A DNA stretch of 47,628 nt, from IMG/VR virus record IMGVR_UViG_3300029258_001468, one strand, 5' to 3'. Positions 9,319 through 45,106 of this stretch are shown here, one piece after another. The position numbers were made by a program, and so were the translations under genes. Below the pieces are notes generated by a model. That model made no database searches and was not told the DNA's origin. It saw nothing but the letters and a program-made list of their open reading frames with translations. Position 1 is the stretch's first letter, and every line of letters begins with the position of its first letter. This DNA comes from a virus.

Positions 9319-9764
9319 GCGAACTGATAGCGAACGACGGAATGCAAATATCGGCGACCTCACTTGGAGCGTGGATACCGGGCGACCCGAATTTGCCGGT
9401 TGATATGTCGCTTGTCAAGACACCGGCTGACGCTGCTGACTGCCCGGACGGAGAAGACGTATTGACAAAGGAGATTTCGTGGACCGTGGTGCCAGCAGCA
9501 TGCGTCTTGGCAGGAAACACGCACGTTGGAGGTAGCTCCTCCCCGATACTGCCACCGGGACCGGGAACAGGAGCACCAATCGAGGCCACAGCGCAGAAGG
9601 TGAAGTGTAAGGCCCTCGGCTCCCCGGAAGCTGTCCTCCGGAAGGGAGACACCGGGAAGTGCAACGGGTCTTTTACGCTGAACGTGTCGCCGTTTACGAC
9701 GACGTACTGCCAGTGCGACTTCGAGATAACAGACGCGAACCAAACGAAAGCGAAGGCTGAGTGA
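9315..9764 (+). CDS. Hypothetical Cys-containing baseplate protein (possible spike-tip protein)
   Basis: ATGA-coupled after the spike gene, 149 aa. No family recognised. Confidence 0.5.
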   Translation: MSELIANDGMQISATSLGAWIPGDPNLPVDMSLVKTPADAADCPDGEDVLTKEISWTVVPAACVLAGNTHVGGSSSPILPPGPGTGAPIEATAQKVKCKALGSPEAVLRKGDTGKCNGSFTLNVSPFTTTYCQCDFEITDANQTKAKAE

Positions 9765-10129
9765 TGGCGGAAATAAAAGACCTTAAGCTATCGGACGACT
9801 TGCACGACCTCGTGTTCGAGGACTACGACTTGTCGTTCGTATCCGGACTTGACAGGGTAAAACAGAACATGAGAATCCGGCTTTGGACTTTTGCCGAGGA
9901 GTGGTTCCTCGACACGTCGGTCGGTTTGCCGTGGTTCACCGAAATCAACGTCAAGGCACCGAATTTACAGGCAATAGACGCACTCCTCCGGCGCGAGATT
10001 CTCGCTGTACAGGACGTGCTTGAGATAGTGGAGTTCACCTTAGACTACAACGCTGCTGCTCGAACCATGCAGGTCGACTTTAAGGCGAAGACCAACTTCG
10101 GCGAGCTAAGCGTAAGAGAGGCGATATGA
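9764..10129 (+). CDS. Baseplate wedge protein (gpW / gp25-like)
   Basis: TGATG coupling, about 121 aa, immediately upstream of the Baseplate-J-like gene. Confidence 0.55.
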   Translation: MAEIKDLKLSDDLHDLVFEDYDLSFVSGLDRVKQNMRIRLWTFAEEWFLDTSVGLPWFTEINVKAPNLQAIDALLRREILAVQDVLEIVEFTLDYNAAARTMQVDFKAKTNFGELSVREAI

Positions 10130-12141: not shown

Positions 12142-12153
12142 AGAGATACGAAT

Positions 12154-16630: not shown

Positions 16631-16642
16631 GGAGATTGACAG

Positions 16643-17179: not shown

Positions 17180-17193
17180 AAGGAGATTGACAG

Positions 17194-18309: not shown

Positions 18310-18579
18310 ATGACTGCACTCCAGTTTCTCAACCAGCCGATCGTGGTAGCGTTTCTCACTGCCGGTGTTGTGCTGTTGGGCTACTGGTTGAACGCTAAGA
18401 AAGACAGCAACCAACGAGTAGGAAACAAGGTAGACAAGGCCAGCTGCTCAGCCTTCCGGAAGAGGATAGGCAAGGAGGTGGAAGACGTACAGCACGAAAC
18501 CGAAGTGGTTAAAAAGGCGCTGGTGTTCATCGTCGCGAAAATGGACGGCGACCCACGTGAACTTGGACTTATTGATTGA
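18310..18579 (+). CDS. Holin candidate (single N-terminal TM helix)
   Basis: TM segment PIVVAFLTAGVVLLGYWL followed by a charged tail. Lies immediately upstream of the lipase and peptidase genes. Confidence 0.45.
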   Translation: MTALQFLNQPIVVAFLTAGVVLLGYWLNAKKDSNQRVGNKVDKASCSAFRKRIGKEVEDVQHETEVVKKALVFIVAKMDGDPRELGLID

Positions 18580-18593
18580 CAAAGGAGAAGACC

Positions 18594-19692: not shown

Positions 19693-19892
19693 CCTCCCTT
19701 TCTCTTCCTTCTCCTGCGGAAAGGGAACCGGGGCGATGCTGGCTGAGGTCGGTGTCGCCCTACCTATATCCGGGGTCGGGAAGCCTAATGGCTTCGGAAA
19801 AAGTAACGACTCCCACCAACACTCAGTTTCACACCTCGGCATGAAACCCGGCTTTTTGCTAACTCGTTATAGTTAGTAAGGAGGGTACTACC

Positions 19893-22653: not shown

Positions 22654-23179
22654 CGACCTGTATCGGTACGTCCGGGAGCACCTGCGCTCCGTTCCTCCGG
22701 TTTTCTACGACCGGGTGCGGACAGCGCTCCTGCTCAAAGGTGTCGACCTATTAGGGGAGGACCAAGACCTCATGTTCGTCGCCCTACGAAACAAGAAGAT
22801 CGACACGTTGCGCTCCTGCAAGCGCGACCGGGTGACAATGAACTCTGTCAAGACGTCGGACGTTACCGAAAGTGAGCTGCTCCCTACCAACGGGAAGACT
22901 GACATGCGTTCGTTCCTTGAGATTCTGTACATCACGTTCTTGCGTGTCAATCCACCACACCAGCGCTACCTCTCGCTCTACATTCGAGCGGTGGCGAACG
23001 GGAAGCAGCCGACGAATGAACACATCAGCTTCCTCGCCGGGTTTAACGGGAAACGAGGCTCGGTCATATGGAAGAAAATCAAGGAAACCGCTTTACAGGT
23101 GCAAAAAGAAGGAAGGGCCTATGAGCTGTACAGAGTGCGAGACCTATCAGACCTGCTGCGACGCGTACGCCTCCAGTAA
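22637..23179 (+). CDS. Hypothetical protein
   Basis: 180-aa ORF. Its 3' end overlaps the polymerase start by 59 nt. Confidence 0.55.
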   Translation: MTASTSDLYRYVREHLRSVPPVFYDRVRTALLLKGVDLLGEDQDLMFVALRNKKIDTLRSCKRDRVTMNSVKTSDVTESELLPTNGKTDMRSFLEILYITFLRVNPPHQRYLSLYIRAVANGKQPTNEHISFLAGFNGKRGSVIWKKIKETALQVQKEGRAYELYRVRDLSDLLRRVRLQ

Positions 23180-25535
23180 GCCTGTAGACGTCCTGTTCGT
23201 GCAGGACATCGTGAAGACGTACAACGGAGTCCGAGGCTACAAGACGGAGACGATGACCAAGCTGCGTCACTCGCTCCGGACGGTCTACAACTCCGGAATG
23301 AGCGTCGAGTATGTGAACCTTGTCAACTACATGCTGCCGGAGGGCAAAAAGCCGGTGAAAAAGGACATCACCGCGTGCGCCGGGTTCACTAAGCGGATGA
23401 TTGACAAGTGCAAACCACAGTATATCGTCGCTCTCGGTGCTGCCGTGTTCACCGCATTGACAGGCAAGAGTCAGTTCAAGAAGTGGGTCGGTCGGACCGT
23501 CGAGCACGAGGGGTACACGGTCATCCCGATGTTTCACCCGGATTACGCCACCAAGAATAAGGCACGGGAGCGAGAGTACGACGCGCAGTTGAAGAACATC
23601 ACGAACCAGCTGCTCGGTAAACACTCCGTCCTCGACGACAGCCGATACGAGCTTATCACCGAGGAGAAGGACATCTACAACAGGCTGCACGACCTGCGGA
23701 CGAGGGAGTGCGACACGATTCAAGCATTCGACTACGAAACGACCGGCCTCATCCCCGGAGAAGGACTGCCAGTGTGCCTGTCAATCTCGTTCGAGCACGG
23801 GCAAGCGTACTGCTTCTACTTCTTCGACCGGGACGAATACGAAGACACCGGTACGAACTCCGGATTGACAAAGACAATAAAGGAAGCGGTACGGGCGTGG
23901 ATGGAGTCGGACGTCCCGAAGGTCGCGCAGAATGCCAAGTTCGAAATCAAGTGGACGATGCGTCACTTCGGCTGCGAACCGAACAACATCGTCGGCGACA
24001 CGAAGCAGATACACCACCTCCTCCATGAGGCGAGCGATTCTTCCCTGTCAAACTTGGCCTACCAGTACACCGATATGGGAGGGTACGACACGCCGATGGT
24101 CGAGTTCCTCGCTGAAAACGGCGAAGGCTCTCACTGGAAGGCCGACCCGGAGACGATGCGTATTTACAGCTGCGGAGATTCCGACTGTACCCGGCGTATC
24201 TACGTCGAGCAGATAGAAACGCTCTTCAAGGACGCTGGCCTCAAGTGGCTGTACCGGAACGTAGTGCACCCGTCAATCTACACGCTGGCCCGTATCGAGG
24301 AACGCGGTATGCAAATCGACGTCAACCGCCTCTACGAGGTGCAGCAGGAATTGACAAAGAAGATAGCCGACACCAAGGCAGAGCTGGACGACATGCCGGA
24401 GGTGCGGAGGACGCTAGCCCGGTTCAAGAAGACGAACAAGAAGTTGACGGAGGTCAACTACGGCTCTTCTTCTCAGATGCAGCACCTCCTCTACCACGAG
24501 TGCAAGCTCCCGGTGCTCAAGACCAGCAAGAAGTCGAAGAAACCGTCGACCGGGGCGAAGGTCCTTGACAAGCTCAAATCGAAGCACCGCGTCGTGCAGC
24601 TCATCTGCAACATTCGTAGCTACACGTACCAACTCGGCGACATCGAGCAGATAGGCGACCGGTTGTCCGAAGAGGAAACCGTCTTTTCAGACTTGGTGCA
24701 GGACTACGTGGTGACCGGTCGTCTTTCCTCCCGGTCCCCGAACCTGCAGAACATCAAGGGAGGAACGGACGAAGAGCCGTCGCTCGTCAAGGAGTGTTTC
24801 GTGTCCCGGTTTGACAAAGGAGAACTCCTGCAGGTCGACTTCTCTCAGCTGGAGCTTAGGCTGGTCGGCAGCGAAGCCAACGAGCCGAAGTTCATCCGGG
24901 CCTTCAAGGACGGTACCGACATGCACACGTTGACCGCCAGCGAAATCAACAAGGTACCGCTTGACAAGGTAGAAAAGAAGCAAAGGACGTACGCGAAGCG
25001 CGTCAACTTCGGCTCCGTCTACGGCATCACCGAACACGGGCTGGCCGAGCAGCTCGATTGCAGCGAGAAGGAAGCGAAGAAGCAGCTCGACGCCTATTGG
25101 GAGTCATACACCGCTATCCGGGCGTGGACGAAACGGAACATCCGCGAAGCGCTGGAAACTTTACAGGTGAGAAACCGGCTCGGTCGCATACGGCATCTGC
25201 CGGACATCACCTCGAACCAGTGGTGGAAGCGCGAATCGGCAGAGCGCCAGTCCTCGAACTTCAAGATTCAGAGCCTCGGTGCGGACATCAACATGTGGAG
25301 CATGGCGAACATTGACCGGTACTTGACAAGGAAGAACTACGACAGCATCGTCATCGGACAGATTCACGACTCGGTACTGATAGACTGCCACCCGGACGAG
25401 AAGGACGAGGTCATTGCGCTTGTCAAGTGGGTCATGACCGAAAAGGCGATGGACCTGTTCACCTTCCTACGCATACCGCTCAAGGTGGACGTCGAAACCG
25501 GACCCCGGTGGTCCGAAATGAGGAACGTAGCGTGA
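23121..25535 (+). CDS. Family A DNA polymerase with 3'-5' exonuclease and N-terminal UDG-like (family-4-like, degenerate) domain
   Basis: Exo I FDYETTG, Exo III YSCGD. Pol motif A DFSQLELR, motif B RTYAKRVNFGSVYG, motif C QIHDS. The N-terminal Cys cluster and FHPDY resemble family-4 UDG. ATG 23121 follows GAAGGAAGGG. Confidence 0.9.
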   Translation: MSCTECETYQTCCDAYASSKPVDVLFVQDIVKTYNGVRGYKTETMTKLRHSLRTVYNSGMSVEYVNLVNYMLPEGKKPVKKDITACAGFTKRMIDKCKPQYIVALGAAVFTALTGKSQFKKWVGRTVEHEGYTVIPMFHPDYATKNKAREREYDAQLKNITNQLLGKHSVLDDSRYELITEEKDIYNRLHDLRTRECDTIQAFDYETTGLIPGEGLPVCLSISFEHGQAYCFYFFDRDEYEDTGTNSGLTKTIKEAVRAWMESDVPKVAQNAKFEIKWTMRHFGCEPNNIVGDTKQIHHLLHEASDSSLSNLAYQYTDMGGYDTPMVEFLAENGEGSHWKADPETMRIYSCGDSDCTRRIYVEQIETLFKDAGLKWLYRNVVHPSIYTLARIEERGMQIDVNRLYEVQQELTKKIADTKAELDDMPEVRRTLARFKKTNKKLTEVNYGSSSQMQHLLYHECKLPVLKTSKKSKKPSTGAKVLDKLKSKHRVVQLICNIRSYTYQLGDIEQIGDRLSEEETVFSDLVQDYVVTGRLSSRSPNLQNIKGGTDEEPSLVKECFVSRFDKGELLQVDFSQLELRLVGSEANEPKFIRAFKDGTDMHTLTASEINKVPLDKVEKKQRTYAKRVNFGSVYGITEHGLAEQLDCSEKEAKKQLDAYWESYTAIRAWTKRNIREALETLQVRNRLGRIRHLPDITSNQWWKRESAERQSSNFKIQSLGADINMWSMANIDRYLTRKNYDSIVIGQIHDSVLIDCHPDEKDEVIALVKWVMTEKAMDLFTFLRIPLKVDVETGPRWSEMRNVA

Positions 25536-25580
25536 AACCTAGCTCTTTGAAGGAGCGTTATCACCATAAAAGGAGGTGCT

Positions 25581-25847
25581 ATGGCAGAGGTAGCCACAGT
25601 CCACGTGTCAAAAGGCGTCACGGTGTCGGTCGGCAAGTTCGAGTCCGTCCGTATTGACGCCACCGTTGAAGTTCGGGCCGAAAAAGGCGAAGACCCGGAC
25701 GACCTTTTCGACATCGGCTTCGAGTCGGTGGACGAGCAGGTAAACAAGCAGCTCGCCGAGATTCAGGACATCGTCACCGAAGGGTCGGTGTTTAACATGG
25801 CCAGCGCCGGAGGTTCAAGGGCGCAGAAGAGTCGTAAACGCAAATAG
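25581..25847 (+). CDS. Hypothetical protein
   Basis: AAAGGAGG RBS, 88 aa. Confidence 0.7.
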   Translation: MAEVATVHVSKGVTVSVGKFESVRIDATVEVRAEKGEDPDDLFDIGFESVDEQVNKQLAEIQDIVTEGSVFNMASAGGSRAQKSRKRK

Positions 25848-25876
25848 CAGTTTCACTTTACAAAGGAGAAGGAGCT

Positions 25877-26899
25877 ATGGCTCTCAACAAAAGACGACTG
25901 GAGCGGTCGAAGAATCGCTCACGCGGTGGAGGAGGAGGAAACTTCCACCGGCTACGCGACGGACGCAACCTCGTCCGCATCTTTTCTTTCCCTCACGAGG
26001 TAGCGGAGGAAGACTTCACCAAGGGCATCTACAAGAAAGGCGAAGTCGAGGTCGGCGACACGTTTGACGAAGTAGAACGCGAGGTCGCCAGCCATTTCCT
26101 CGACGACGGTTCCCTCAACTGCATCGGTTCCGGATGTGAGCACTGCGCGGAAGCGAAGAAGCTCTCCGGTTCGAAGAGCAAGAGCGACCAAAAGCTCGGA
26201 CGGCAGCTGTCCGCACGTCGCCGGTTCTACGTCAACCTAGTTGACATCGAAGAATCCGACGCCGGGGTGCAACTCTCTGCTCTTCCTCAGTCGGTGTTCA
26301 ACGCGGTGTTGAACTACATCATGGACCCCGATTTCGGGGAAGAGATACTCGGCCCGGAGGGGCGCGACTTCATCATTGACAGGGACAGCAAGGAGTCGCC
26401 TGACAAGATGTACGCGGTCCGCTTGCGCGACGAAAAGAAGTGCGAGGAACTGAGTGCCGACCTGCAGGACGACGTCACCGACCTTTTCACCTGTAAAGCG
26501 CTCGAACCGGGATGGTCCAGCAACTCCGACCTGAACGAGGCCGAAGAGAAGGACGACGAAACCAAGAAGGAACAGACTCGTCGCTCCAGCCGGGCGCGTG
26601 ACAAGGACGACGACGAACCGAAGAAGTCGGGCAAGAGGTCGAGCAAGAAGAAGGACAACGACTTCGAAGACGACGACACCTCCGGCGACAAGGCTCCGTG
26701 GGACGAGGGGAAAGAGGACGCTCCTGCCTTCAAAGAGAAGGACAAGGTCACGTTCGAGGACGCCGGTGAGACATTGACAGGTAAGATCGTCGAGTTTGAC
26801 GACTCCGGCGATGTTGCTGCGGTCGAAGTCGGCAACGAAATCTACGACATACCAGTAGTCGAATTGACAGCTGCGAAAAAGAGCAGCAGACGCAGATAA
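25877..26899 (+). CDS. ssDNA-binding protein candidate (gp32-like Zn-containing core, acidic/Lys-rich linker, small C-terminal domain)
   Basis: Basic N-terminus, H-x8-C-x5-C-x2-C, then a long D/E/K-rich region. Sits in the replication module. Confidence 0.45.
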   Translation: MALNKRRLERSKNRSRGGGGGNFHRLRDGRNLVRIFSFPHEVAEEDFTKGIYKKGEVEVGDTFDEVEREVASHFLDDGSLNCIGSGCEHCAEAKKLSGSKSKSDQKLGRQLSARRRFYVNLVDIEESDAGVQLSALPQSVFNAVLNYIMDPDFGEEILGPEGRDFIIDRDSKESPDKMYAVRLRDEKKCEELSADLQDDVTDLFTCKALEPGWSSNSDLNEAEEKDDETKKEQTRRSSRARDKDDDEPKKSGKRSSKKKDNDFEDDDTSGDKAPWDEGKEDAPAFKEKDKVTFEDAGETLTGKIVEFDDSGDVAAVEVGNEIYDIPVVELTAAKKSSRRR

Positions 26900-26904
26900 A
26901 CACA

Positions 26905-26990
26905 GAGCGAAGGGACCCCGAAGGGCGTTTCATGGCTGCTACGTCCTACTGCCACAGGGAGGACACCAATCGTCTTCCCTCCCTTCGCTC
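26905..26990 (+). promoter_or_regulatory. Structured intergenic element (11-bp perfect inverted repeat enclosing 64 nt) upstream of the PurZ-like gene
   Basis: GAGCGAAGGGA (26905-26915) pairs with TCCCTTCGCTC (26980-26990). There is an internal GTCCT/AGGAC hairpin. Confidence 0.4.
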
Positions 26991-27011
26991 GTTAACTATG
27001 GGAGTTTACAG

Positions 27012-28103
27012 ATGATAAAAGGAAAAGCGAACATCGTCCTTGACGGTCAGTGGGGTTCGACCGGGAAAGGTAAGCTCATCGGGTACTTAGCGCTAGCACA
27101 CGACGTGTCGCTGGCGACGTGCGACTTCATGAGCAACGCCGGACACACCTTCGTCGACGACGATGGAAAGAAGTATGTCAGCTGTCAAGTGCCTACCTCG
27201 TTCGTGAACACGGACTGCGAGCTGGCAATCAACGCCGGTGGAGCGGTCACGATAGATAGACTCCTCAAAGAGATAGAGGAGTTCGACGTCGCCGACCGCC
27301 TCACGATTCATCCGCACTGCGCCGTCATCACAGAGGAAGACCGGGACCACGAAGCGAAGGTGCTCGCCCGGATAAGCAGCACGTTGAAAGGCTGCGGAGG
27401 TTCTCTCTCCCGTAAAGTGATGCGAGTCGCAAAACTGGCGAAGGACGAGCCGAAGCTTAAACAGTGGATAGGCGACACCACCGCGTTGACTCAGAAGCAC
27501 CTGTCAATCGGTGGAACCGTGCTGGTCGAGGGAGCGCAGGGATTCGACCTCTCATTGAACCACGGGCACGAGTACCCGTTCGTCACGAGCAGGGATGTCA
27601 CGACGATGTCGATACTGAACAACGCGTGTATTCCTCCGCTGTGGCTCGGCGACGTGTACGGCTGTCTTCGCACGTACCCGATTCGAGTCGGGAACATGTT
27701 CGACGGAGAGGGCAACCAAATCGGCCATTCCGGTCCGTGGTACGACGACCACGAAGAGATCGATTGGGACAAGCTCAAGGCAACGTCCGGTTCCGACATC
27801 GACTTGACAGAGAGGACAACGGTCACGAACAAGGTCCGACGCCTCTTCACGTTCAGCCACTACCAAGTCCGCAAGTTCATAAGGGCCTGTGCACCGACCA
27901 AGCTGTTTGTGAACTTTGTCAATCACCTCTGCGCTGCCGACGTCGGAAAGACCGAGTTGGACGACCTGTCGGTGGAAACACGTATCTGGCTCAACGAGCT
28001 ACAGGAAACAGTCGGTGACGAGTGGATATCCGACGTCAAGTACAAACCCGAAATCAGCCACCTCGGAACCGGAGCGAAAAACGGCGACATGGTGGTGCTA
28101 TAA
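27012..28103 (+). CDS. purZ: PurZ-like adenylosuccinate-synthetase homologue (candidate N6-succino-2-amino-2'-deoxyadenylate synthase)
   Basis: PurA core motifs are present (GQWGSTGKGK, NAGHT, EGAQG, YPFVTS). It has only 363 aa, Ser-Thr replaces the PurA Asp-Glu pair, and the substrate loops are divergent. Phage context. Confidence 0.7.
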   Translation: MIKGKANIVLDGQWGSTGKGKLIGYLALAHDVSLATCDFMSNAGHTFVDDDGKKYVSCQVPTSFVNTDCELAINAGGAVTIDRLLKEIEEFDVADRLTIHPHCAVITEEDRDHEAKVLARISSTLKGCGGSLSRKVMRVAKLAKDEPKLKQWIGDTTALTQKHLSIGGTVLVEGAQGFDLSLNHGHEYPFVTSRDVTTMSILNNACIPPLWLGDVYGCLRTYPIRVGNMFDGEGNQIGHSGPWYDDHEEIDWDKLKATSGSDIDLTERTTVTNKVRRLFTFSHYQVRKFIRACAPTKLFVNFVNHLCAADVGKTELDDLSVETRIWLNELQETVGDEWISDVKYKPEISHLGTGAKNGDMVVL

Positions 28104-28112
28104 GGAGGCACC

Positions 28113-29255
28113 ATGCTTTACGGAGACAAAAAGAACGTGGTGTGGGTCATCGGTCGCCTTGCTGCCGGGAAAACGTCGCATATCCGTGGCATCATCGAAA
28201 CGGACCCGGACAAGCTCATGGCCGTTTTCCCCGGTCAAGCGTGCCGGGAGCACTTCGGTGCGCAGACCATGGCCGAATGTGAGAACCCGACCGCGCCCGA
28301 AATGACGGAGTCGTTCGTACGAAACCTCATCTGTGATGCAGTTGACAGGATAGAACCGGGCATGACGCTCTTCGTCGACGGTTTCCCTCGCACGCCGAAT
28401 CAGGTAGAGTGGCTGTACGACCAGTTCGTTCGGAACTCCGGGTTGGCGTGTATGTTCCTCGTTTACACCTGCGATGACGTAGTCCGCAAGGCGCGAGCGT
28501 TGAAGCGCGACGAGGGAACGAAGAACGAGTCGCTCATGAACGCTCGGCTCATCACCGACGACCGGAACCAGCTGCGCGTCCTCGAAGAGATTCTGATGCG
28601 GAACGCGTACGCAGTTGCCAACAAACGGCGGTCCGTACCGCTCACGCTCATTGACAACACCAAAGACATACCGCACATCGCCGGGATGCCTCCCTTCGTT
28701 CCTACTCAGTACGTGCCAATTGACGGGCGCATTGAACGAGCGATGGAGGACCTACGCGATGCGCCGGAGGTCGCCGGTATCTCGTTCGACGACCGGAACC
28801 TCGCGACGATGATGGCGTGCAACGCTACGCTGTCGGACCAAACGCTCGCTCCGCTGAACTTGACAATGGAGAAGCTGCGGTCCGAAGCGGTGCAGCACAA
28901 CGAAATGCCGTTGATGGCGACCCCGGTCGACTGGACCCGGCGCTTCGTGTCGCGTGCAATCGAGGAGCTGAACGAGCTACTGGAGCAGCTGCCGGAAACG
29001 TGGTGGTCGAAGGAGCTGGCCGACATCAGAAAGGCGCGTGTCGAGTTGATAGACGCGTGGCACTTCATGATGTCCGCGTCGCAGTCGCTCGGCATGGACG
29101 CGACGTTCTTCGCCCGGACGTACTACGCGAAGCTCAAGGTCAATCTCAAGCGTCAAGCGAACGGGTACGACAAACGTGTAAAGAAGAAAGGCGACGACAA
29201 CCACGTCGGCGTGGCTACTCGTCCCGGTAACGGGGAGGAGTCGACCGGCGAATGA
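28113..29255 (+). CDS. Fusion protein: adenylate-kinase-like NMP kinase (N-terminal) + all-alpha NTP pyrophosphohydrolase (MazG / dimeric-dUTPase / DUF550-like, C-terminal)
   Basis: P-loop GRLAAGKT and DGFPRT (adenylate kinase signature) within aa 1-185. AIEELNELLEQLPETWWSK ... VELIDAWHF (ExxE...ExxD metal motifs) within aa 270-320. Confidence 0.65.
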   Translation: MLYGDKKNVVWVIGRLAAGKTSHIRGIIETDPDKLMAVFPGQACREHFGAQTMAECENPTAPEMTESFVRNLICDAVDRIEPGMTLFVDGFPRTPNQVEWLYDQFVRNSGLACMFLVYTCDDVVRKARALKRDEGTKNESLMNARLITDDRNQLRVLEEILMRNAYAVANKRRSVPLTLIDNTKDIPHIAGMPPFVPTQYVPIDGRIERAMEDLRDAPEVAGISFDDRNLATMMACNATLSDQTLAPLNLTMEKLRSEAVQHNEMPLMATPVDWTRRFVSRAIEELNELLEQLPETWWSKELADIRKARVELIDAWHFMMSASQSLGMDATFFARTYYAKLKVNLKRQANGYDKRVKKKGDDNHVGVATRPGNGEESTGE

Positions 29256-30511
29256 GTGTCCTGTCCCCGGAGTTTCAGACGAACTTGACAAAGGCGATAC
29301 TGCAGGACCCGTCTTTTCTGTCAAGGTACCGGACCTACCTAGAACGCGGTATGTTCAAGGACGAAACCGAGTCCGACGTCGTGCGTCACGCATTGGAGTT
29401 CTACGACCAGTACAGTGCCACTCCGTCGCGTGACTCGTTCACGCTCTACTTGGAGAGGCAGAACTACTTGACAGAGGACATAGAGGAGTTGGTGCATCCG
29501 CTCTACGACGAGCCGGTGCTGAACATCGACTTCCTCGAAGACTCGTTGAAGGACTTCGTCAAGAAGACGCGAATCAAGGACGTGCTGTTGGAGAGTACGG
29601 TGTTGCTTGACAAGGGAGAATACGACCGCATATACGACCGCATCAAGAACACGGTGCTCTCCTTCGTGGACGGGGACGTCGGCGACCTGTTTTGGAAGGA
29701 CAAAAAGAAGGTGCTGCAGGAGCTTGACGCCGGAGAACAGTTCATTCCTACCGGCATCACCTCGCTCGACGAGAAGCTCGGTGGTGGTGCCGTGCGGAAG
29801 ACGTTGAACGTCATCGTCACTCCGCCTAACAAAGGAAAAAGCACGTCGCTGGTTAACGTCGGGAAGTACGCAGCGCTCGCCGGGTTCAACGTCGCGCACT
29901 ACACGTTCGAGCTTTCGGCGAACGTCATCAAGCGCCGGTACTTCATGGCGATGACCCGGATGAGCAAGAAGGAGCTAAAAAGGAAGAAGGCTACCGCGTA
30001 TGACAAGATACTCGACCTCGCCGACGGAATAGCGGAAGAGTCCATCATCGTCAAGCGGTACCCGGCGTACAGCTGCACGGTGCCGATGGTCCGGGAACAC
30101 ATCAACCTCGTGCGGAACAAGTACGGGTTCTTCCCGGACGTCCTCATCTTCGACTACGCGGACCTCATGCGCTCCACCAAGAGCTACGACCAGCGAAGAC
30201 ACGAGCTGTCCGAGGTCTACTACACGATGAGGGAGCTGGCCGACGAGTTCAACGCAGCAGCGTGGACCGCGTCGCAAACGAACCGGAGCGGAGCAAGCGA
30301 GGAGCTGGTCACGATGGAGGACCTCGCCGAGTGCTACGAAAAAGCAGCCTGTGCAGACGTTATGGTGTCTGTCAATCAAACTTTAGACGAAAAACGGTCT
30401 CGGCCACAGACGGCCCGGCTGTTCCTCGCTAAGAACCGGGACGACGTGTCCGAGGTGACGGTAGAGGTCGAGACCGATTGGGAGAGGGCATGGATAGGAA
30501 ACTTACTTTAG
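29252..30511 (+). CDS. DnaB-like replicative helicase (RecA-fold)
   Basis: GITSLDEKLGGG, Walker A PPNKGKST, Walker B LIFDYADL, and SQTNR. Confidence 0.8.
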   Translation: MSVLSPEFQTNLTKAILQDPSFLSRYRTYLERGMFKDETESDVVRHALEFYDQYSATPSRDSFTLYLERQNYLTEDIEELVHPLYDEPVLNIDFLEDSLKDFVKKTRIKDVLLESTVLLDKGEYDRIYDRIKNTVLSFVDGDVGDLFWKDKKKVLQELDAGEQFIPTGITSLDEKLGGGAVRKTLNVIVTPPNKGKSTSLVNVGKYAALAGFNVAHYTFELSANVIKRRYFMAMTRMSKKELKRKKATAYDKILDLADGIAEESIIVKRYPAYSCTVPMVREHINLVRNKYGFFPDVLIFDYADLMRSTKSYDQRRHELSEVYYTMRELADEFNAAAWTASQTNRSGASEELVTMEDLAECYEKAACADVMVSVNQTLDEKRSRPQTARLFLAKNRDDVSEVTVEVETDWERAWIGNLL

Positions 30512-30981
30512 GCCAACGCATAGCGAAGATGGCGAACAGACTGAACCCGAACAAAGGAGGTTTGCGCGTGTCAAGTGACAAGATGTGTGGTTGTGGAATC
30601 GAGTGTGAGTGTATAGTGGATGGAAAGTTGAAGCTGTGCGCTCCGCTCAATGTGTCGACTGTCAATTTCAAGTCGTGTCCGAATCCGGACCTGCAGCGCC
30701 CGGTAGAGCGCCCGGAGATTGAGGAAGACGTCGACAAGCTGAGAAAAGCGGTAGACGAGGTAGCCAACAAGACAAACGCCGAAGGTGAAAAGGCAGCACT
30801 AGCCGAAGGCAAGGTGGTGTACACCTGCCCGGTGCATGGCGACGCCGTTGACGCCTTGACCTTTTCCTCGCCTCAGCTCGGTGGAACGGTCGCGTATTGC
30901 ATGCAGTGCTTTGTCAAGCAGATGTCCCGAATCCTCAAACCACTGGAAACGACGAAGTGGACGCCACCGAAGAAGGATTGA
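30490..30981 (+). CDS. Hypothetical Cys-rich protein
   Basis: ORF with several CxC / CxxC pairs. Start ambiguous (TTG 30478, ATG 30490 or ATG 30529). Confidence 0.5.
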   Translation: MDRKLTLGQRIAKMANRLNPNKGGLRVSSDKMCGCGIECECIVDGKLKLCAPLNVSTVNFKSCPNPDLQRPVERPEIEEDVDKLRKAVDEVANKTNAEGEKAALAEGKVVYTCPVHGDAVDALTFSSPQLGGTVAYCMQCFVKQMSRILKPLETTKWTPPKKD

Positions 30982-31223
30982 CGGTTGTCAAGCAATACAA
31001 CCCGGTATGTTACCGGAGGGCTAGACGTGTTCCAGTTGTATCCGTCACTCAACGCCGACCAGCAGCAGCTCCCGGTAAACGACCGGCGCTAGTTGCAGCT
31101 GTAAAGCGAGTGCTGGAGAAGCTGGAACGCATCGAGCCTTTCTCCGTGCAGTGGGGTATGCTGTGCGGTATGGGGTTCGCAAGCGAACAACGACTACAGG
31201 AGTTCCTCGCATGCCACGAGTAG
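30978..31223 (+). CDS. Hypothetical small protein (TTG start)
   Basis: TTG overlaps the upstream TGA and follows GAAGAAGGA. The longer ORF from 30897 was rejected. Confidence 0.4.
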   Translation: MTVVKQYNPVCYRRARRVPVVSVTQRRPAAAPGKRPALVAAVKRVLEKLERIEPFSVQWGMLCGMGFASEQRLQEFLACHE

Positions 31224-32215
31224 ACCGTGACTACGTGTTCGAGCAGCTAGGCGATTTCCACCGTCGCAAGGAGTGGTACAACTTCCGGTGTCCGTATCAC
31301 CGAGGCGAGTCACTCAACTTCGGGGTGTCCTTCCGGGCTGGCCGGTTCCACTGCTTCTCATGTGGTGCTGCCGGTCCGCTGCCGGTCCTCCTATATGACC
31401 TGAGGGAAGGCACGGCGACGGGCTTCGGAGGCGGTCGTGGCCTCCTAGGGCCTAAGGCCCGACCCCGGCCCGGCGAGGCCAAGGAAGATACCTCGTCTGC
31501 GCTTTCTAAGCGCTTAAATTCGGGTCGGTCCGACCCCGGCCCGGAGGTGGACACCGACAGGTGGTTCCGGGACCGCTTCGAGGCCCTCCCGGAGGTGGCT
31601 GGCACGGCGCTTGCTGGTAAGATGGCGCTGGAGTACCTGCGCCGACGCGGAATACAGCTCGACCGGCTGGACGTTGGTCTACTTGACGGATACGAAGGTC
31701 GGGTGGTCTTCCCATTCTACGACCGAGGCAAGGTCGTCTTCTTTCAGGGCCGGTCATTCGTGCCGTCGCCGTTGAAGACCATCAACCCCGATGTTGAGGA
31801 CGGCTGGTATCCGAAAACCGACGTGCTCTTCCGACTTGAGTGTCTGAACGGTGGAACGGTCGTATTGACAGAGGGGATATTCGACGCCTTGAAGACGGAA
31901 CAGGCGATTGGAAGGTCACATCGAGCGAGTTGCCTACTTGGAAAGACCATCAGCCAAAGACAGATTCGGCTGCTCCGGTCTGCTGGCGTCGAGTGGATTA
32001 CCGTGTTCTTGGACGGTGACGCCAACAGGGAAGCAGCCGATCTCGCTATCAAGCTTTACAAGCACAAATTCGGCGTGCGCTTAGTCCAGTACCCTAACCA
32101 CATGCACGAAGCGGACCCCGGCTCGCTGGACGCCGGGACGATTCGCTCTCTTCTCCTTTCTGCTCGTCCTGTTGGTCCAACAACAGAGCTTGAGCTTGCT
32201 CTTTTATCCGCCTAA
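31211..32215 (+). CDS. DnaG-like primase (CHC2 zinc finger + TOPRIM) with a low-complexity insert encoded by repeat copy B
   Basis: CPYH...CFSCG zinc finger. TOPRIM motifs VLTEGIFDA and FLDGDANREAA. The linker GFGGGRGLLGPKARPRPGEAKEDTSSALSKRLNSGRSDPGPE is encoded by 31409-31545. Confidence 0.85.
   Translation: MPRVDRDYVFEQLGDFHRRKEWYNFRCPYHRGESLNFGVSFRAGRFHCFSCGAAGPLPVLLYDLREGTATGFGGGRGLLGPKARPRPGEAKEDTSSALSKRLNSGRSDPGPEVDTDRWFRDRFEALPEVAGTALAGKMALEYLRRRGIQLDRLDVGLLDGYEGRVVFPFYDRGKVVFFQGRSFVPSPLKTINPDVEDGWYPKTDVLFRLECLNGGTVVLTEGIFDALKTEQAIGRSHRASCLLGKTISQRQIRLLRSAGVEWITVFLDGDANREAADLAIKLYKHKFGVRLVQYPNHMHEADPGSLDAGTIRSLLLSARPVGPTTELELALLSA
31409..31545 (+). repeat. GC-rich structured repeat, copy B, in frame inside the primase gene
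   Basis: Shares GGGCCTAAGGCC, GGAAGATACCTCGTCTGCGCT and TCTAAGCGCTTAAATT with copies A and C. Internal 14-bp direct repeat CGACCCCGGCCCGG at 31460 and 31531. Confidence 0.7.
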
Positions 32216-32756
32216 TCTCCCTGCTGATAGTCGCTTTGCTGATGTCAAGTGACCGGGCTATCAGACTGTCCGGTATCGAGTCCGGGTTCAGGCTCATGAC
32301 GAGCTTGCCGGAGGCGCGTGCCTCCAGTTTGTGTTGCCGGACCGCCATTGACATCTGTAAAGTCTTATCGCTAGGAGCGAGCTTCTCCCGGAGTACGCGC
32401 TTGCCGAGGGCCGACAGGCGACGCTCCAGTGCTTGGATAAAGACGCGTGCCTCGACCTCGTCTTCGTGGCTGTCAATCGGAGCTTCCACGTTGTCTGAGG
32501 AAGAAGCAAACCGGGCGTGGTACCGCATCGCTTCGCGCTGCGCGTCTACGATTCTGTTGTACGCCGTCCTGCTGATGAGGCGGATGACGTCTTGCGTGCT
32601 CTTGTGTTTGTACCTGTCAATTGCGTGTAGGGCTGCGACGAGTCCTTCCTGCATGAAGTCGTGCGCTTGCAGCTGGTCGACCGCGTGCCGGTAGGCGACG
32701 ATGCGGACGCCGTTGTAAATCTTCCGGATGAACCAGCTCTTGTCAAGCATCTTCAT
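32094..32756 (-). CDS. Sigma-70 family (ECF-like) sigma factor
   Basis: Region 2 DFMQEGLVAALHAIDRY...RTAYNRIVD. Region 4 HTH LIARSLDISKATISREIRRIKEQ. Confidence 0.75.
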   Translation of the reverse strand: MKMLDKSWFIRKIYNGVRIVAYRHAVDQLQAHDFMQEGLVAALHAIDRYKHKSTQDVIRLISRTAYNRIVDAQREAMRYHARFASSSDNVEAPIDSHEDEVEARVFIQALERRLSALGKRVLREKLAPSDKTLQMSMAVRQHKLEARASGKLVMSLNPDSIPDSLIARSLDISKATISREIRRIKEQAQALLLDQQDEQKGEESESSRRPASRGPLRACG

Positions 32757-35250: not shown

Positions 35251-35281
35251 CTTCTTCTCCTTTGTCAATGATGGCAGAGGT

Positions 35282-36067: not shown

Positions 36068-36430
36068 TGTAGCTCCTTTCGTGGTGCCGGGTTCGGCAGC
36101 GCCTCCCGGTCGTTTGTTTGTTGGGTGTCGGGGTTCTCACCCCCATACGTAAAAAAAACACACGCCGGGCCTTCGCGCAACCCCAAGATATAGTGTTTAA
36201 CACGTTAAAGAAATACAACGGGTTGTATAAGAGCAAATAGCGTGCCAAATGAAGCGCTTAAAAAGACTGGCACGGCTCTTGCTGGTCAAACGTATAGAAA
36301 CAGAGCCTTTTTGGACGTTTTCATTTGTAAAGAAACGAATGTCGCCTGTCAAGGCAACGCGGTCGTTCTACTCTGTAAAGAAACGGAGTTTGTGTTCCGG
36401 TCGTTATCGTGGTTGAAGGGAGAGAACGTC
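36068..36430. promoter_or_regulatory. Divergent control region between the leftward and rightward operons
   Basis: Exact 12-mer TGTAAAGAAACG at 36326 and 36374. Hairpin 36229-36280 with AAGCGCTT at its apex. Palindrome GTGTTTAACAC. On the - strand, TTGACA-N17-TACAAA at 36352-36324. Confidence 0.5.
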
Positions 36431-36691
36431 ATGGCGATGATAGAGCTAGGCGACACGTTTTTGATGAAGGGCTACGAGTGGGAGGTCATCAAGGAGAACC
36501 AAAACCGGCAGGGCCGGTCGCACTGGTTCGTTGCCGAGAACTACGAAGGCAGCACCTGCATCTTCTTGAGCGACCACATGTACCACTGGGTCCGAAATGG
36601 AACAGCCGTCCTACTACCAAGAGGGAGGAAGAATGAACCAGCTAACAGCGAAACCGCTCGAAGCACCGGTGGGGATTGGCCCGAATCCTAA
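36431..36691 (+). CDS. Hypothetical protein
   Basis: ATG after GAAGGGAGAG. The upstream extension to 36242 was rejected. Confidence 0.55.
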   Translation: MAMIELGDTFLMKGYEWEVIKENQNRQGRSHWFVAENYEGSTCIFLSDHMYHWVRNGTAVLLPRGRKNEPANSETARSTGGDWPES

Positions 36692-36896
36692 GGTCCGAGT
36701 CATGGACGCGATTGACAAGGACCACGAGTTCGTGGCCGACGCCATCGAACGCCAGCTCATTGCGCTGGACGCTAGCGCGATGAAGTACCTCGAAAACAGA
36801 ATCGAAGACGCACGATACAGAGGAGCGTTGGACGACGGACCGCGTGACCGGGACTCGTACCACGCCTTCCACAGCTGTATCAGCTTTGCATGGTAA
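36633..36896 (+). CDS. Hypothetical protein
   Basis: ATG after GAGGGAGGAAG. Overlaps the previous gene in another frame. Confidence 0.55.
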   Translation: MNQLTAKPLEAPVGIGPNPKVRVMDAIDKDHEFVADAIERQLIALDASAMKYLENRIEDARYRGALDDGPRDRDSYHAFHSCISFAW

Positions 36897-36913
36897 TTGA
36901 CAAAGGAGAATAG

Positions 36914-37012
36914 ATGTCCACCGTCGTAGGAGCAGCTTTCGTACTCGTGGTAGTCGCACTGCTCGTGTTCGTAGTGCTGATAGAGTGGAAGCCTCCCCGG
37001 AGGTGGTGGTAG
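36914..37012 (+). CDS. Small hydrophobic (single-TM) peptide, 32 aa
   Basis: ATG after TTGACAAAGGAGAATAG. Sequence MSTVVGAAFVLVVVALLVFVVLIEWKPPRRWW. Below the ORF-track size cutoff. Confidence 0.4.
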   Translation: MSTVVGAAFVLVVVALLVFVVLIEWKPPRRWW

Positions 37013-37139
37013 AGGGGGCATGAAACTGAGTGTTTGTCTCAGACGTTACTTTTTCTGAAGCCACTCGGCTTCCCAACCCCCGGATAGCTGGACATATCGC
37101 ATAGCAGGAGTCCTTATTCACAACCCAAAAGGAGGAAGT

Positions 37140-37781
37140 ATGGCACCAACAACCTACAACCCCGGTGACGCAGTATCCGTTGACGGCGAAGGAGGGTACA
37201 CCGTTCTCAAGGTAATGAAGTCCTCTCTTAAAGTCGAAAAAGACGGCAACACCAGCATCAAGCCGATGGCTCTGTGCGAACTTGACGGAGGAGAAGCACC
37301 GGCAGAGAAACCGGCGTCTCGGAAGCGTTCGAGTAAAAAAGCAGCTCCCAAGGGAACCGGCGTAAAGGCGAAGCCACGCAGGAACCCGGTTGAGGACGCA
37401 GAGAATCCGCCTACCAAGTCACGCAAGCGGAAAGCTCCGGCAGAAAAACCGGCAGCAAGCAAGAAGTCGTACGAAAAGCGCGACAGCTCGAAGGACGGCG
37501 AGGTAGTTGACAAAGGAGAGTCGACTAAAGGAACCGCCTCGAAGCCGAAAGCAGCTCGTCCGACCAAGAAATCCGAAGCGGACCCGGTAGGCAAGGTGCT
37601 GTGGGACTGCGACACACCGACCAAGGTCGTGAACGCTGTCAAGGGACACAAGGCGTACAAGTTCGTCAACACCGACAGCTTCAAGAAGACCGTCGCTCAG
37701 AAAAACGACCTGCAGTTCGGTCTTTTCCGGATGCGAATGGGGAACCTGCTTCGGGGAGCTATCAACAGAGCTTCGAAGTAA
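37140..37781 (+). CDS. Lys/Pro/Ala-rich basic protein (possible DNA-binding / histone-H1-like) with globular ends
   Basis: GGAGGAAG RBS. About 110 aa of KKAAPK/KPRR/SKKS low-complexity sequence. Confidence 0.65.
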   Translation: MAPTTYNPGDAVSVDGEGGYTVLKVMKSSLKVEKDGNTSIKPMALCELDGGEAPAEKPASRKRSSKKAAPKGTGVKAKPRRNPVEDAENPPTKSRKRKAPAEKPAASKKSYEKRDSSKDGEVVDKGESTKGTASKPKAARPTKKSEADPVGKVLWDCDTPTKVVNAVKGHKAYKFVNTDSFKKTVAQKNDLQFGLFRMRMGNLLRGAINRASK

Positions 37782-38720: not shown

Positions 38721-38738
38721 TTGACAAAGGAGAAGAAC

Positions 38739-38957
38739 ATGCCACTACGTAGAGCTAAGCAGGTGCCACGGTCGAAGTGGGGGACCTTCGTCCTTCCCTT
38801 CGGCAAGTACCGGGGAGACACGCTGTACTCGGTGTACCTCAACGACCCGTCGTACCTCCGATATTTGGACACGATGGACCTGTACCCTAAGACGAGGGAA
38901 GCCGTCGACGCAGCGATAACACACCTGAACGAACACGGCGAAAACAGCATACGTTGA
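38739..38957 (+). CDS. DUF3820-like small protein
   Basis: FGKYRGDTL......PSYLRYL motif. ATG after TTGACAAAGGAGAAG. Confidence 0.5.
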   Translation: MPLRRAKQVPRSKWGTFVLPFGKYRGDTLYSVYLNDPSYLRYLDTMDLYPKTREAVDAAITHLNEHGENSIR

Positions 38958-39710: not shown

Positions 39711-39714
39711 CCGA

Positions 39715-40926: not shown

Positions 40927-40933
40927 TTGACAG

Positions 40934-42801: not shown

Positions 42802-42802
42802 T

Positions 42803-45106
42803 GTGCCGGTCATGCGGTGTCAGCGCGGAGGGAAAAAGGGCTGGAAGGCCGGGCCTACCGGGTTTTGCTATATAGGGACCTCCGCACGTGGCAAGGCCGA
42901 AAAGCAGCTGGCTGCGATTAAGGCGTCGCAGAAGAAACGTGGCAAGATTGACAGTGAAGAAAAGAAAAAGACGCAGACGCGTCTTGACATAGACGAAGCA
43001 ACTGCTCTTTCAAAGTTAGGGTTAAGCCGGAACAGAACATCAAAGCGGAAGGTCCGCTTCAAGCGACCTCCGAAGTGGCTGCTACCGTTGGGTATTGAGA
43101 GAGAATACCAGCGCAGATTGACAGCCGTCGTCCGGGAGTGGAAAGCGGTATGTGACCGAACTCTCATGCGTCAACTTCCTGCCCTCGTTGAGGAAGGAAG
43201 GATGGAGTTCAACCTCGACGCGTTTACCGACTCGTTGGACATGCTGGTCGACAACCTCAAGCTCGAAGTCAACAAGGACAAGGAGAAATACGGGGTGGTC
43301 GCACTTGACATCGGAGAGAAGACGAAACGATGGAACGACAAGGAGTGGCGCAAGACGATGAACCAAGTCGTCGGCGTTGCTCCCTTCTCCGCTCCGGGAA
43401 CCGAGGCACTCGTCACGGACTTTACAAGTGAGAACGTTGGTCTGATAACGAAGCTCGGAGATTCCACGATGGAGGACATACGTGGCATCGTTCACCGGGG
43501 AGTCAAGCAGGGCAAACGGCACGAAGAGATAGCGAAGGAGATAACGGGCCTAGTTCCACCGGGACGCTTCAAGAAAGCGGAAACGAGAGCGAAGCTCATC
43601 GCTCGCGACCAAGTCTCCAAGCTCAACGGGCAATTGACACAGGCGAATCAGACGTCGGTCGGAGTTACCGAGTACATATGGCGCTCCTCCGACGACAGCC
43701 GGGTCCGGGCAACGCACGAGGCGAACGACGACAAGAAGTTCAAGTGGTCGAATCCTCCTGCAGCAACCGGGCATCCGGGACAGGACATCAACTGCCGGTG
43801 TTGGGCTGAGCCGGTGTTCGATGACTTAGCGGAAGCCATCAACGCCGATCCACCAGCACCTAGTGCGCCTGTCAAGGTACCAACGCCGAAGAAGACGAAG
43901 CCCGACGTAAAGACGAAAAAGCCCTTAAAGACTCAGGTGGACAAGAAGTTATCGTCCGAGTCGGTAAAGGCCACTGAGCGGTACGTATCGGACTATGAAG
44001 AGTTGAATCAACAACTCCGACTTGGGCAGGTATCCGCCAAAAACAAAAAGTTCGCTGCGTCGCTGGAGAAGGCAATTGACGAGTCAGAAGGTCTAGCGGA
44101 AGATACGGTTTTTTGGCGTGGCATGGAGTTCGAGTCAAAAAACAATCCGTTTCTCGGTAACTTTAAGAAGGGATATACGTTCAGCGATGAGGGCTTCCAG
44201 TCGATGTCGCTCGACAAAAAGGTAGCTGAGAATTTTTCGCGTGGGGGTGGGTTCGGTGACGTTGAGGTGTTAATGAAAATCAACGTACCAAAAGGGACTA
44301 AGCTAGCCAAGATACCGAGTGGGCTGGACGAGTTCATTCTACCGCCATCAAAAGGACCACAGGTGTATAAAGTCACCAAGGTCACGAAGCCGATTTCGGG
44401 TAAGCTTCTAGTGGAGGTTGACTACAGGGATATCTCGAAGGTCGCCACCAAGGGACCAAACAAAGGAGTAAAGCCGGTAGTCGCTAAACCGAAGCCACCG
44501 AAACCGGACGCATTCGACACGGCGAAGTACAACGAAATGGTGTACGATGACGAACAAAAGGAGTTTCTATTTGGAGCGAAGGAAACGCTCAAGAAGAACT
44601 CCGGGATGGACAGGCCCAAGGCGCTGCAGGACTACATCGGAAACGGCTTTACAGACGTCAATGATGAGCTTCGTGGTATGCCTGTCAATTTCGAGTACTT
44701 CAACGACTCGTTGGAGATACAGGAGGCTATTGACGATCTCGTTGACCTGTACAACCACGCTCCGAAAACACCGGAGAACCTCGTCCTTTGGAGAGGCACC
44801 GGGCTGGACCACGTGAAGAATCCTCACAAGCTCGTGGGGAAGACCATCACGGAAGACGCGTTCCTGTCAACGACGCTCAACGAACAAAAGACGAACTTCT
44901 TCATCAGTTGGGCTAAGGACCGGGACATCGAGAAGGTGGGACGAATGAAGGTATACGTTGACAAAGGAGAGGCGTTTCTCCCCGGAACAATATACGAACG
45001 GGAGGTGATATTCGAACCCGGCAGGACCCTAAGGATACTCAAGGTTGACGAGGTGAAGCCGAACGTGTTCAACATCGAAGCGCAGCTCGTAAAGGACGTA
45101 CTCTGA
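42803..45106 (+). CDS. Minor head protein (Mu F / SPP1 gp7-like) fused to two tandem ADP-ribosyltransferase (C3/VIP2-type) domains
   Basis: MuF core ...YIWRSSDDSRVRATHEANDDKKF...INCRCW. ART1 has FWRG / QSMS / LDEF. ART2 has LWRG / LSTT / YEREV (R-STT-ExE). Confidence 0.8.
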   Translation: MPVMRCQRGGKKGWKAGPTGFCYIGTSARGKAEKQLAAIKASQKKRGKIDSEEKKKTQTRLDIDEATALSKLGLSRNRTSKRKVRFKRPPKWLLPLGIEREYQRRLTAVVREWKAVCDRTLMRQLPALVEEGRMEFNLDAFTDSLDMLVDNLKLEVNKDKEKYGVVALDIGEKTKRWNDKEWRKTMNQVVGVAPFSAPGTEALVTDFTSENVGLITKLGDSTMEDIRGIVHRGVKQGKRHEEIAKEITGLVPPGRFKKAETRAKLIARDQVSKLNGQLTQANQTSVGVTEYIWRSSDDSRVRATHEANDDKKFKWSNPPAATGHPGQDINCRCWAEPVFDDLAEAINADPPAPSAPVKVPTPKKTKPDVKTKKPLKTQVDKKLSSESVKATERYVSDYEELNQQLRLGQVSAKNKKFAASLEKAIDESEGLAEDTVFWRGMEFESKNNPFLGNFKKGYTFSDEGFQSMSLDKKVAENFSRGGGFGDVEVLMKINVPKGTKLAKIPSGLDEFILPPSKGPQVYKVTKVTKPISGKLLVEVDYRDISKVATKGPNKGVKPVVAKPKPPKPDAFDTAKYNEMVYDDEQKEFLFGAKETLKKNSGMDRPKALQDYIGNGFTDVNDELRGMPVNFEYFNDSLEIQEAIDDLVDLYNHAPKTPENLVLWRGTGLDHVKNPHKLVGKTITEDAFLSTTLNEQKTNFFISWAKDRDIEKVGRMKVYVDKGEAFLPGTIYEREVIFEPGRTLRILKVDEVKPNVFNIEAQLVKDVL

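Follow-up and report, generated by a model that had tools for sequence, protein, structure and literature searches.

Why should one word of 13 nucleotides, TTGACAAAGGAGA, recur without change in a phage genome, in some places just before a start codon and in others deep within a gene? The question is raised by the virus record IMGVR_UViG_3300029258_001468 of IMG/VR, a stretch of 47,628 nucleotides that was analysed as a whole and is referred to below as the window. Because a 144-bp repeat is found at both of its ends (1-144 and 47485-47628 are identical), the window represents a whole genome of 47,484 bp, circular or circularly permuted. The 13-mer is present in exactly eight exact copies, seven on the + strand and one on the - strand, and was absent from 100 dinucleotide-preserving shuffles (0 expected, 8 observed), consistent with the claim of a first-pass annotation of this DNA that its frequency is far from chance. 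The strand count and positions given in that annotation were also correct, except for the first copy, which had been placed at 9472 but starts 10 nucleotides earlier, at 9462. Rather than standing alone as a cassette, the 13-mer represents the consensus of about 180 TTGACA sites dispersed through the genome.

The TTGACA family

Forty-one sites lie within two mismatches of the 13-mer, against 1.2 expected, and nearly all of them retain TTGACA. This is the most over-represented hexamer of the genome: the window contains 108 copies on the + strand and 73 on the - strand (8.5 expected per strand), giving 181 as against 17.6 for both strands, and the non-redundant circle of 47,484 bp holds 180 sites (108 on + and 72 on -), or one per 264 bp. 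The alignment of all sites, on either strand, yielded a weak asymmetric extension, V-TTGACA-R-N-N-G-N-R-A-A, the consensus of which is the 13-mer of the first-pass annotation. T is nearly excluded at positions 0, 7, 8 and 12 of the aligned sites, and the A at position 13, found in 80% of + sites and 65% of - sites, carries 0.91 bit; in all, the extension provides 3.2 bits of information outside the hexamer, in a logo spanning positions 0-14. The two informative patches, the TTGACA core and the A at 13-14, are one helical turn apart, on the same face of the DNA. The extension was seen in every frame class and at intergenic sites, with an enrichment over local background of 4.6-fold for sense and 4.4-fold for antisense sites. 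Given this equal enrichment, the 39:2 split (sense:antisense) of the near-13-mers with up to two mismatches reflects the purine-rich coding strand and no orientation rule. Likewise, the orientation bias of the sites as a whole vanished once the purine skew of the coding strand was considered.

TTGACA is enriched 10-fold, and only two of its one-base variants are truly enriched, TTGACG (4.5-fold) and TTTACA (3.4-fold). TTGTCA scores 4.4-fold solely through its overlap with TGACAA, and the remaining variants reach at most 2.5-fold, most of them lying near 1-fold. A position-independent model based on the base frequencies of the family predicted about 0.7 exact 13-mers on the + strand, where seven are observed. 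The excess over this prediction indicates a preference for the complete consensus as such; in part, this stems from the four copies that also serve as consensus Shine-Dalgarno sites. A scan of viral contigs for ATTGACAAAGGAGAA returned single matches at chance level only.

Selection at the DNA level

Coding DNA contains 103 sense and 56 antisense TTGACA words. Synonymous-codon shuffles within genes, with the protein kept, gave 23±4 sense and 15±3.5 antisense words (z = 19 and 12, respectively), and codon-order shuffles gave 14 and 9.5. The sense sites are split across the two stop-free frames, with 50 read as TTG-ACA and 53 as xTT-GAC-Axx, and both frames depend on minor codons (TTG, ACA and the xTT codons), about 50 each of TTG and ACA being used in TTG-ACA pairs. 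The antisense frames hold 24, 27 and 5 sites, the first two values being those of frames 1 and 2. Genes contain about 88% of the sites, and 61 sites run antisense to transcription; intergenic DNA, which makes up 5.6% of the genome, holds 21 sites, at twice the coding density. Selection on the DNA itself has created these words and maintains them, by way of synonymous codons, dipeptide choice and free intergenic bases.

Spacing and orientation of the sites

The sites are spread over the whole circle. With the two strands pooled, the gaps between them are more even than those obtained by random placement (coefficient of variation 0.745 vs 0.99±0.07, P<0.0002), and the maximum gap is 996 bp vs 1521. 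The gaps on single strands are no more regular than random (coefficients of variation of 0.91 and 1.03), with gaps of 2.2-2.9 kb. Regularity that appears only when the strands are pooled means that sites on the two strands are interchangeable, which points to a double-stranded, orientation-independent function and argues against Chi, primer sites and stoperators oriented with transcription. We infer that the words are binding sites for a protein that acts on double-stranded DNA, in either orientation. A palindromic or dimeric operator was considered separately and rejected, as there was no preferred TTGACA-TGTCAA spacing.

Distribution among related phages

The enrichment was followed in about 90 loci with related portal genes, sampled as parts of genomes, and was found to be bimodal. 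Twelve loci (L157, L133, L135, L159, L001, L145, L003, L160, L155, L163 and L238/L242, the last two being parts of one PurZ phage contig) are enriched 3.4- to 8.5-fold, and the remaining loci, about 75 in number, range from about 0 to 2.5-fold. The enriched loci belong to uncultivated myoviruses with G+C contents of 38-59%; on the portal tree, they lie in one deep clade, interleaved with non-enriched loci. L133 and L135 show the same variant spectrum as the window, and the sites of L133 are divided between the strands (40 on + and 38 on -). The flank preferences (no T at position 0, A-rich positions 13-14) are weaker in most of the enriched relatives and strong in L003. In a comparison with the closest relative, at the 80% level in the portal and with a nucleotide identity of 68-81%, 6 of 14 sites of the window were retained, as opposed to an expectation of about 18%, which speaks for selection on individual sites; turnover of sites is clear as well.

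Seven prophage relatives and their host flanks (Desulfobacterota, Myxococcota and an alphaproteobacterium) are not enriched (0-1.3-fold). The window encodes a PurZ-type replication module, described below, and five other PurZ phages are also without enrichment (0.4-1.7-fold), as are L239, L240 and L241 (1.0-1.6-fold), which have the same PolA-PurZ-DnaB-primase-sigma synteny and primases 39-41% identical to that of the window. L238, with the same replication module, is enriched 7.2-fold. Phages with the PurZ/primase/sigma module may thus be either rich (L238) or poor (L239-L241) in TTGACA, and a general property of PurZ or Z-genomes was rejected on the basis of the five PurZ phages and the three phages with the same module. 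No window gene is shared solely with the enriched loci, and the genes for the basic protein, the sigma-like factor, DUF932 and DUF2786 are present in poor relatives too. In a viral contig collection, the primase matches were too distant and there was no DUF932 relative. A crude index of Shine-Dalgarno usage, tried as a proxy for host type, failed to separate rich from poor loci.

Candidate readers of the word

TTGACA is identical to the -35 element of sigma-70/sigma-A promoters, the enriched variants TTTACA (lac) and TTGACG are familiar functional forms of that element, and recognition by a helix-turn-helix on double-stranded DNA would be a candidate mode in both cases. To our knowledge, region 4 of the primary sigma factor is the only universal reader of this hexamer. 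The same word and variants across 38-59% G+C, patchy among close relatives and tracking no phage gene, are best fitted by a universal host reader, and the interleaving of enriched and non-enriched loci over this G+C range fits convergence on one target common to all hosts. We tentatively propose, as a plausible reading of the sequence, that the sites are orphan -35 elements read by region 4 of the host primary sigma factor within the RNA polymerase holoenzyme, and that they act as a sink or antenna. Orphan elements without a -10 partner would bind holoenzyme with no firing, and holoenzyme would prefer fragments carrying TTGACAAAGGAGAA over point mutants. During lytic growth, the replicating phage DNA would come to act as a large sink, or antenna, for the RNA polymerase of the host, and 180 sites per genome, multiplied by the many genome copies of an infected cell, could outnumber the host's own -35 words. 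It is also possible, if doubtful, that virulent DNA-modifying phages independently loaded their chromosomes with orphan -35 hexamers that would titrate or concentrate the sigma-A RNA polymerase of the host, as a form of host take-over, or a polymerase antenna, encoded in the DNA and requiring no dedicated protein. Such an arrangement would resemble the decoy or titrating arrays of transcription factor sites described for a synthetic yeast system (PMC3322331), in which many non-productive sites sequester a DNA-binding factor; unlike these arrays, it would be a natural viral case aimed at the general transcription machinery of the host. Recognition by a sigma factor had been among the possibilities listed in the first-pass annotation, with the phage sigma factor as the reader: the former idea comes close to the reading favoured here, but the phage sigma factor is a less likely candidate than that of the host, and its specificity was rejected as an explanation because rich and poor relatives do not differ in its region-4 helix.

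Several observations weigh against orphan -35 sites for host RNA polymerase. The even spacing was reproduced in only two of the seven enriched relatives tested (L133 and L145). There is no TTGACA in the two largest non-coding, presumably regulatory regions of the window, 36068-36241 (the divergent region between the leftward and rightward early genes) and 19693-19892, and thus no sign of the word in the real promoters of this phage. Unlike -35 elements, the sites have no -10 partner, are about 88% genic and one third antisense, number 180 copies in 47 kb and are missing from these main non-coding regions. Prophage relatives and three relatives of lytic type, the hosts of which presumably have an ordinary sigma factor, are not enriched, suggesting that any benefit is not general. 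A -35 hexamer alone binds holoenzyme weakly. Because the relatives were sampled as parts of genomes, a horizontally moving phage gene is possible. Finally, the A13-14 extension matches no known contact of sigma region 4, and the Z-element AACCT read by the beta' zipper in T7A1 lies 2 bp downstream of the extension position (PMC3173786). This element of the promoter spacer was rejected as an explanation for A13-14, its position being off by about 2 bp.

The main rival reader, possible but rather unlikely, is a DNA-binding protein of the phage, of the helix-turn-helix type, either architectural and coating the chromosome or a monomeric regulator with two DNA-reading modules; its specificity would happen to cover the -35 hexamer, or would have arisen from occlusion of that hexamer. 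An asymmetric site of about 14 bp with two informative patches one helical turn apart would suit such a protein, and patchiness among close relatives would follow from the gain and loss of an accessory gene. The stoperators of mycobacteriophage L5 have the consensus GGTGGMTGTCAAG, which contains a -35-like TGTCAA/TTGACA. Cluster A stoperators in general are, like the sites described here, asymmetric words of 13-14 bp with TGTCAA/TTGACA scattered over a phage genome, and the L5/TipsytheTRex repressor reads its 13-bp site as a monomer, via two adjacent DNA contacts (PMC9283540), a mode of reading similar to that envisaged. Stoperators, about 20-36 in number and well conserved, are located in promoters and in short gaps between genes, strictly follow the direction of transcription and occur in temperate phages that encode a dedicated repressor, whereas the window has about 180 degenerate sites, mostly in coding DNA and in both orientations, and neither a repressor nor an integrase was recognised in Pfam scans of 40 window proteins, many of the small ones being without annotation.

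In favour of a phage protein, there is a pair of families identified de novo, A and B, each present in 5 of the 12 rich loci, with at least one of them in 6 of 12, whereas the 77 poor loci have neither. The two genes are located upstream of the terminase (L133:5151-6190, L135:4971-6425, and in L155, L157, L159 and L003) and encode proteins of about 100 and 250 amino acids, the longer of which has a conserved TDGK motif; neither family has a Pfam or PDB match. The window itself encodes many unannotated early proteins and a basic protein resembling histone H1. Against a phage protein, neither the window nor L238 contains family A or B, the window has no gene exclusive to rich loci, and its genes for the basic protein, sigma-like factor, DUF932 and DUF2786 recur in poor relatives. 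The identity with the -35 hexamer and the occurrence of the same variants at 38-59% G+C would have to be a coincidence, or the result of deep ancestry with many losses.

It is improbable that TTGACA is the target of a sequence-specific DNA-modifying enzyme, kept dense for even protective coverage. The even, orientation-independent spacing would fit such coverage, and this lineage is rich in modification modules, with PurZ in the window, 7-deazaguanine genes in L133, methylases in L134 and L135 and TAGT in L136. Nevertheless, no methyltransferase or base-exchange enzyme was found among the window proteins, PurZ works via the nucleotide pool and not at specific sites, the enrichment follows no single modification module, and the -35 identity would be left unexplained.

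A quite improbable reading is that of a Chi-like signal for recombination or nuclease control, shielding linear or rolling-circle DNA from an enzyme of the RecBCD/AddAB type. The sites are dense, on both strands and genome-wide; the phage looks lytic, no Gam-like gene was recognised in the window, and PD-(D/E)XK nucleases are encoded there. Chi, DNA uptake sequences and KOPS/SRS are also short words raised many-fold and dispersed in coding DNA through selection at synonymous sites. All of these are strand- or orientation-specific and specific to a host taxon, whereas TTGACA is strand-interchangeable, is the same hexamer at 38-59% G+C and is not enriched in prophage relatives or in flanking host DNA. 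Chi is read on one strand and in one orientation, but here only the pooled strands are evenly spaced, and known Chi words are G-rich. The first-pass annotation had listed recombination hot spots among its possibilities; a strand-specific hot spot fits this pattern of spacing poorly.

Promoter and translation-start signals

The first-pass annotation had read the 13-mer as a promoter or translation-initiation cassette tolerated inside genes, where the internal copies would be internal promoters or ribosome loading sites. The arrangement TTGACAAAGGAGA-N5-ATG does occur four times, with AAGGAG at Shine-Dalgarno distance from the starts at 18594, 36914, 38739 and 35250 (- strand), as that annotation had described. 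The copy at 18576-18588 (+) provides both the TGA stop of gene 18310-18579 and the Shine-Dalgarno sequence of the lipase-like gene from 18594. That at 36897-36909 (+) follows immediately the stop of gene 36597-36896 and precedes a small, strongly hydrophobic open reading frame (36914-37021, +) of about 35 amino acids (MSTVVGAAFVLVVVALLVFVVL...), which is probably real, though outside the gene list used. The intergenic copy at 38721-38733 (+) supplies the Shine-Dalgarno sequence of the gene starting at 38739, and the single - strand copy (35256-35268) lies 5 nt before the ATG at 35250 of the DUF2786/zinc-ribbon gene, with a second TTGACA 21 nt farther upstream (first base at 35295). The four gene-internal copies, all on the + strand, are read in two frames, again as annotated: 9462-9474 in frame 0 of gene 9315-9764 (L-T-K-E), and three in frame 1 (x-D-K-G-E), at 24811-24823 in the UDG-PolA gene (22872-25535), at 37507-37519 in the gene of the Lys/Ala/Pro-rich basic protein (37140-37781; V-D-K-G-E, the protein having VVDKGE) and at 44958-44970 in the gene of the MuF-ADP-ribosyltransferase fusion (42803-45106).

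With a role restricted to promoters or translation starts, the wider family is hard to reconcile, and we consider such a cassette very improbable. The 180 exact TTGACA words provide the -35 hexamer of a sigma-70-type promoter, but no -10 element follows 16-18 bp downstream, the logo shows no signal as far as +60 and full promoter matches do not exceed chance (4 vs 5.4 expected). Weak -10-like hexamers (NANNNT) follow 21 sites vs 9.9 expected, an excess partly due to neighbouring ATTGACA sites. Sense TTGACA is 2.3-fold enriched in the 45 nt before starts (15 sites vs 6.8 expected), but this value equals the general intergenic excess, and the distances to the start vary (7, 13, 18, 24, 27, 30, 40 and 45 nt), with no single register. 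Position and orientation are not those of promoters either, given the predominance of coding DNA and the 61 antisense sites. A -35 element adjoining the Shine-Dalgarno sequence would, moreover, start the transcript inside the gene it should serve. Since the antisense sites carry the same extension, a role at the RNA level, such as ribosome loading, fails for the family, and internal ribosome loading leaves both these and the hexamer-only sites unexplained. The idea of a promoter or ribosome cassette is largely refuted by the sequence.

On the simplest reading, TTGACA has been fitted in at any place that other constraints permit, and the start-adjacent copies are words placed beside a consensus Shine-Dalgarno sequence, or into its spacer, the former yielding the exact 13-mer. 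TTGACA forms the spacer between the Shine-Dalgarno sequence and the start codon three times, as GGAGA-TTGACA-G-ATG at 16636-16641 (+) and likewise at 17187 and 40927. Four of the eight exact copies resemble the start-associated sequences (SAS) of Cluster K mycobacteriophages, which are asymmetric 13-bp words with a Shine-Dalgarno core just upstream of starts (PMC3203893). The SAS are found almost exclusively 3-7 bp before starts, in one orientation and in the non-structural half of the genome (PMC3203893), unlike the sites of the window, where gene-internal positions, genome-wide and on both strands, account for four of the eight exact copies and for the greater part of the family.

Primase sites and composition

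Recognition by the DnaG-type primase of the phage is highly improbable. The template would be 5'-TGTCAA-3', with a GTC core as in T7, and the primer would run from A4 to about A14 (11 nt), the motif having the length of a DnaG primer. The phage has its own primase and DnaB helicase, and the density per strand (one site per 440-660 nt) is of the order of Okazaki fragments. Against this, known primases need only about 3 nt, single-strand spacing is random with gaps of 2.2-2.9 kb, and of four phages that share the module, with primases 39-41% identical to that of the window, one is enriched (L238, 7.2-fold) and three are not (1.0-1.6-fold).

There is a negligible chance that the enrichment reflects codon usage, amino-acid composition or base skew, or that it arose during assembly: GAC is favoured for Asp and purines predominate on the coding strand, but 4-5-fold fewer sites are obtained in shuffles that keep the proteins and the codon usage, TTG and ACA are minor codons despite their use in TTG-ACA pairs, antisense and intergenic sites are enriched too, and independent assemblies of several ENA, JGI and Logan datasets yielded the same contig. 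A codon or dipeptide artefact was rejected on the basis of the synonymous and codon-order shuffles.

Gene content of the window

The phage is of the myovirus type and looks lytic. It has no relative at the nucleotide level among 50,697 deposited phage records. Structural genes for a tape measure protein, baseplate J, terminase, portal and a MuF-ADP-ribosyltransferase fusion were recognised, and the major capsid gene spans the circle junction, at the ends of the window. After the capsid gene, at 865-910, there is a terminator-like hairpin, CCCGGACCCCGG-TGTCAAAG-CCGGGGTT, followed by a T-run; the loop of the hairpin contains TGTCAA, and a TTGACA precedes the stem by 12 nt. The MuF-like head protein fused to an ADP-ribosyltransferase toxin domain (42803-45106) has 767 amino acids; in relative L006, a MuF protein of 1300 amino acids has weaker ADP-ribosyltransferase and faint acetyltransferase Pfam matches.

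The replication block of the Z-genome (2-aminoadenine) type extends over 22872-32215 and contains a UDG-PolA fusion (22872-25535), a gp32-like gene, a PurZ-type adenylosuccinate synthetase (27012-28103), a dUTPase_2/MazG-like enzyme (28113-29255), DnaB and a DnaG-type primase (31151-32215, +). The PurZ homologue matches the PurZ of known 2-aminoadenine phages, although the nearest one among deposited phages (Bacillus phage vB_BpsS-140) is just 39% identical. The gene order of the block recurs in four metagenomic contigs, L238-L241. A small sigma-like factor gene (32094-32756, -), with Sigma70_r2 and a C-terminal helix-turn-helix, converges on the primase gene with a 3' end overlap of about 120 nt, a convergent overlap retained in L238-L241. 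The basic protein (37140-37781) has 213 amino acids, with a long histone-H1-like middle rich in Lys, Ala, Pro and Ser and a short C-terminal domain, the latter conserved in L238-L241, TTGACA-rich and TTGACA-poor alike. The gene for the DUF2786/zinc-ribbon protein starts at 35250 on the - strand, and a DUF932 gene is also present.

Other word biases were observed in the window, the DNA of which is presumably Z-modified. Palindromes are strongly avoided: GATC occurs 20 times vs 167 expected, CCCGGG, CTCGAG, GCCGGC, GAGCTC and CGGCCG are each absent vs 8-34 expected, and GGCGCC and AGGCCT are found once each. As several of these avoided palindromes contain no A, 2-aminoadenine could not protect them. 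A second word family is centred on CCGG (CCGGGA 68 vs 26, ACCGGG 61 vs 27 and CCGG 515 vs 332 in synonymous shuffles), and ACCGGG and CCGGAC are also among the top words of the closest relative, L001. Portal relatives carry other DNA-modification modules (L133:2709-4844, L136:2397-7180, L006:1807-3811 and L135:1628-3561), comprising 7-deazaguanine genes (PTPS, radical SAM and GTP cyclohydrolase I), TAGT, PAPS-reductase, radical-SAM, ThyX and C5-methylase genes. This lineage seems to swap its DNA-modification systems freely.

Implications

Promoter-like words are normally avoided or selected against in genes, where they would lead to spurious polymerase binding. This phage has gone the opposite way, bringing the canonical -35 word to a tenfold excess at the cost of unusual codon and dipeptide choices, and an excess is seen again in several related phage lineages. 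We found no description in the literature of an over-representation of the -35 hexamer in a phage genome, although this absence is no proof of novelty. If host RNA polymerase is bound, these genomes would represent a new and simple viral way to redirect the host transcription machinery, and a natural, genome-scale example of regulation by decoy sites. If a phage protein is bound instead, the sites would define a system for coating or silencing the chromosome, at a density far above that of stoperators. In both cases, the TTGACA word provides a cheap sequence marker of the trait, searchable in all phage genomes.

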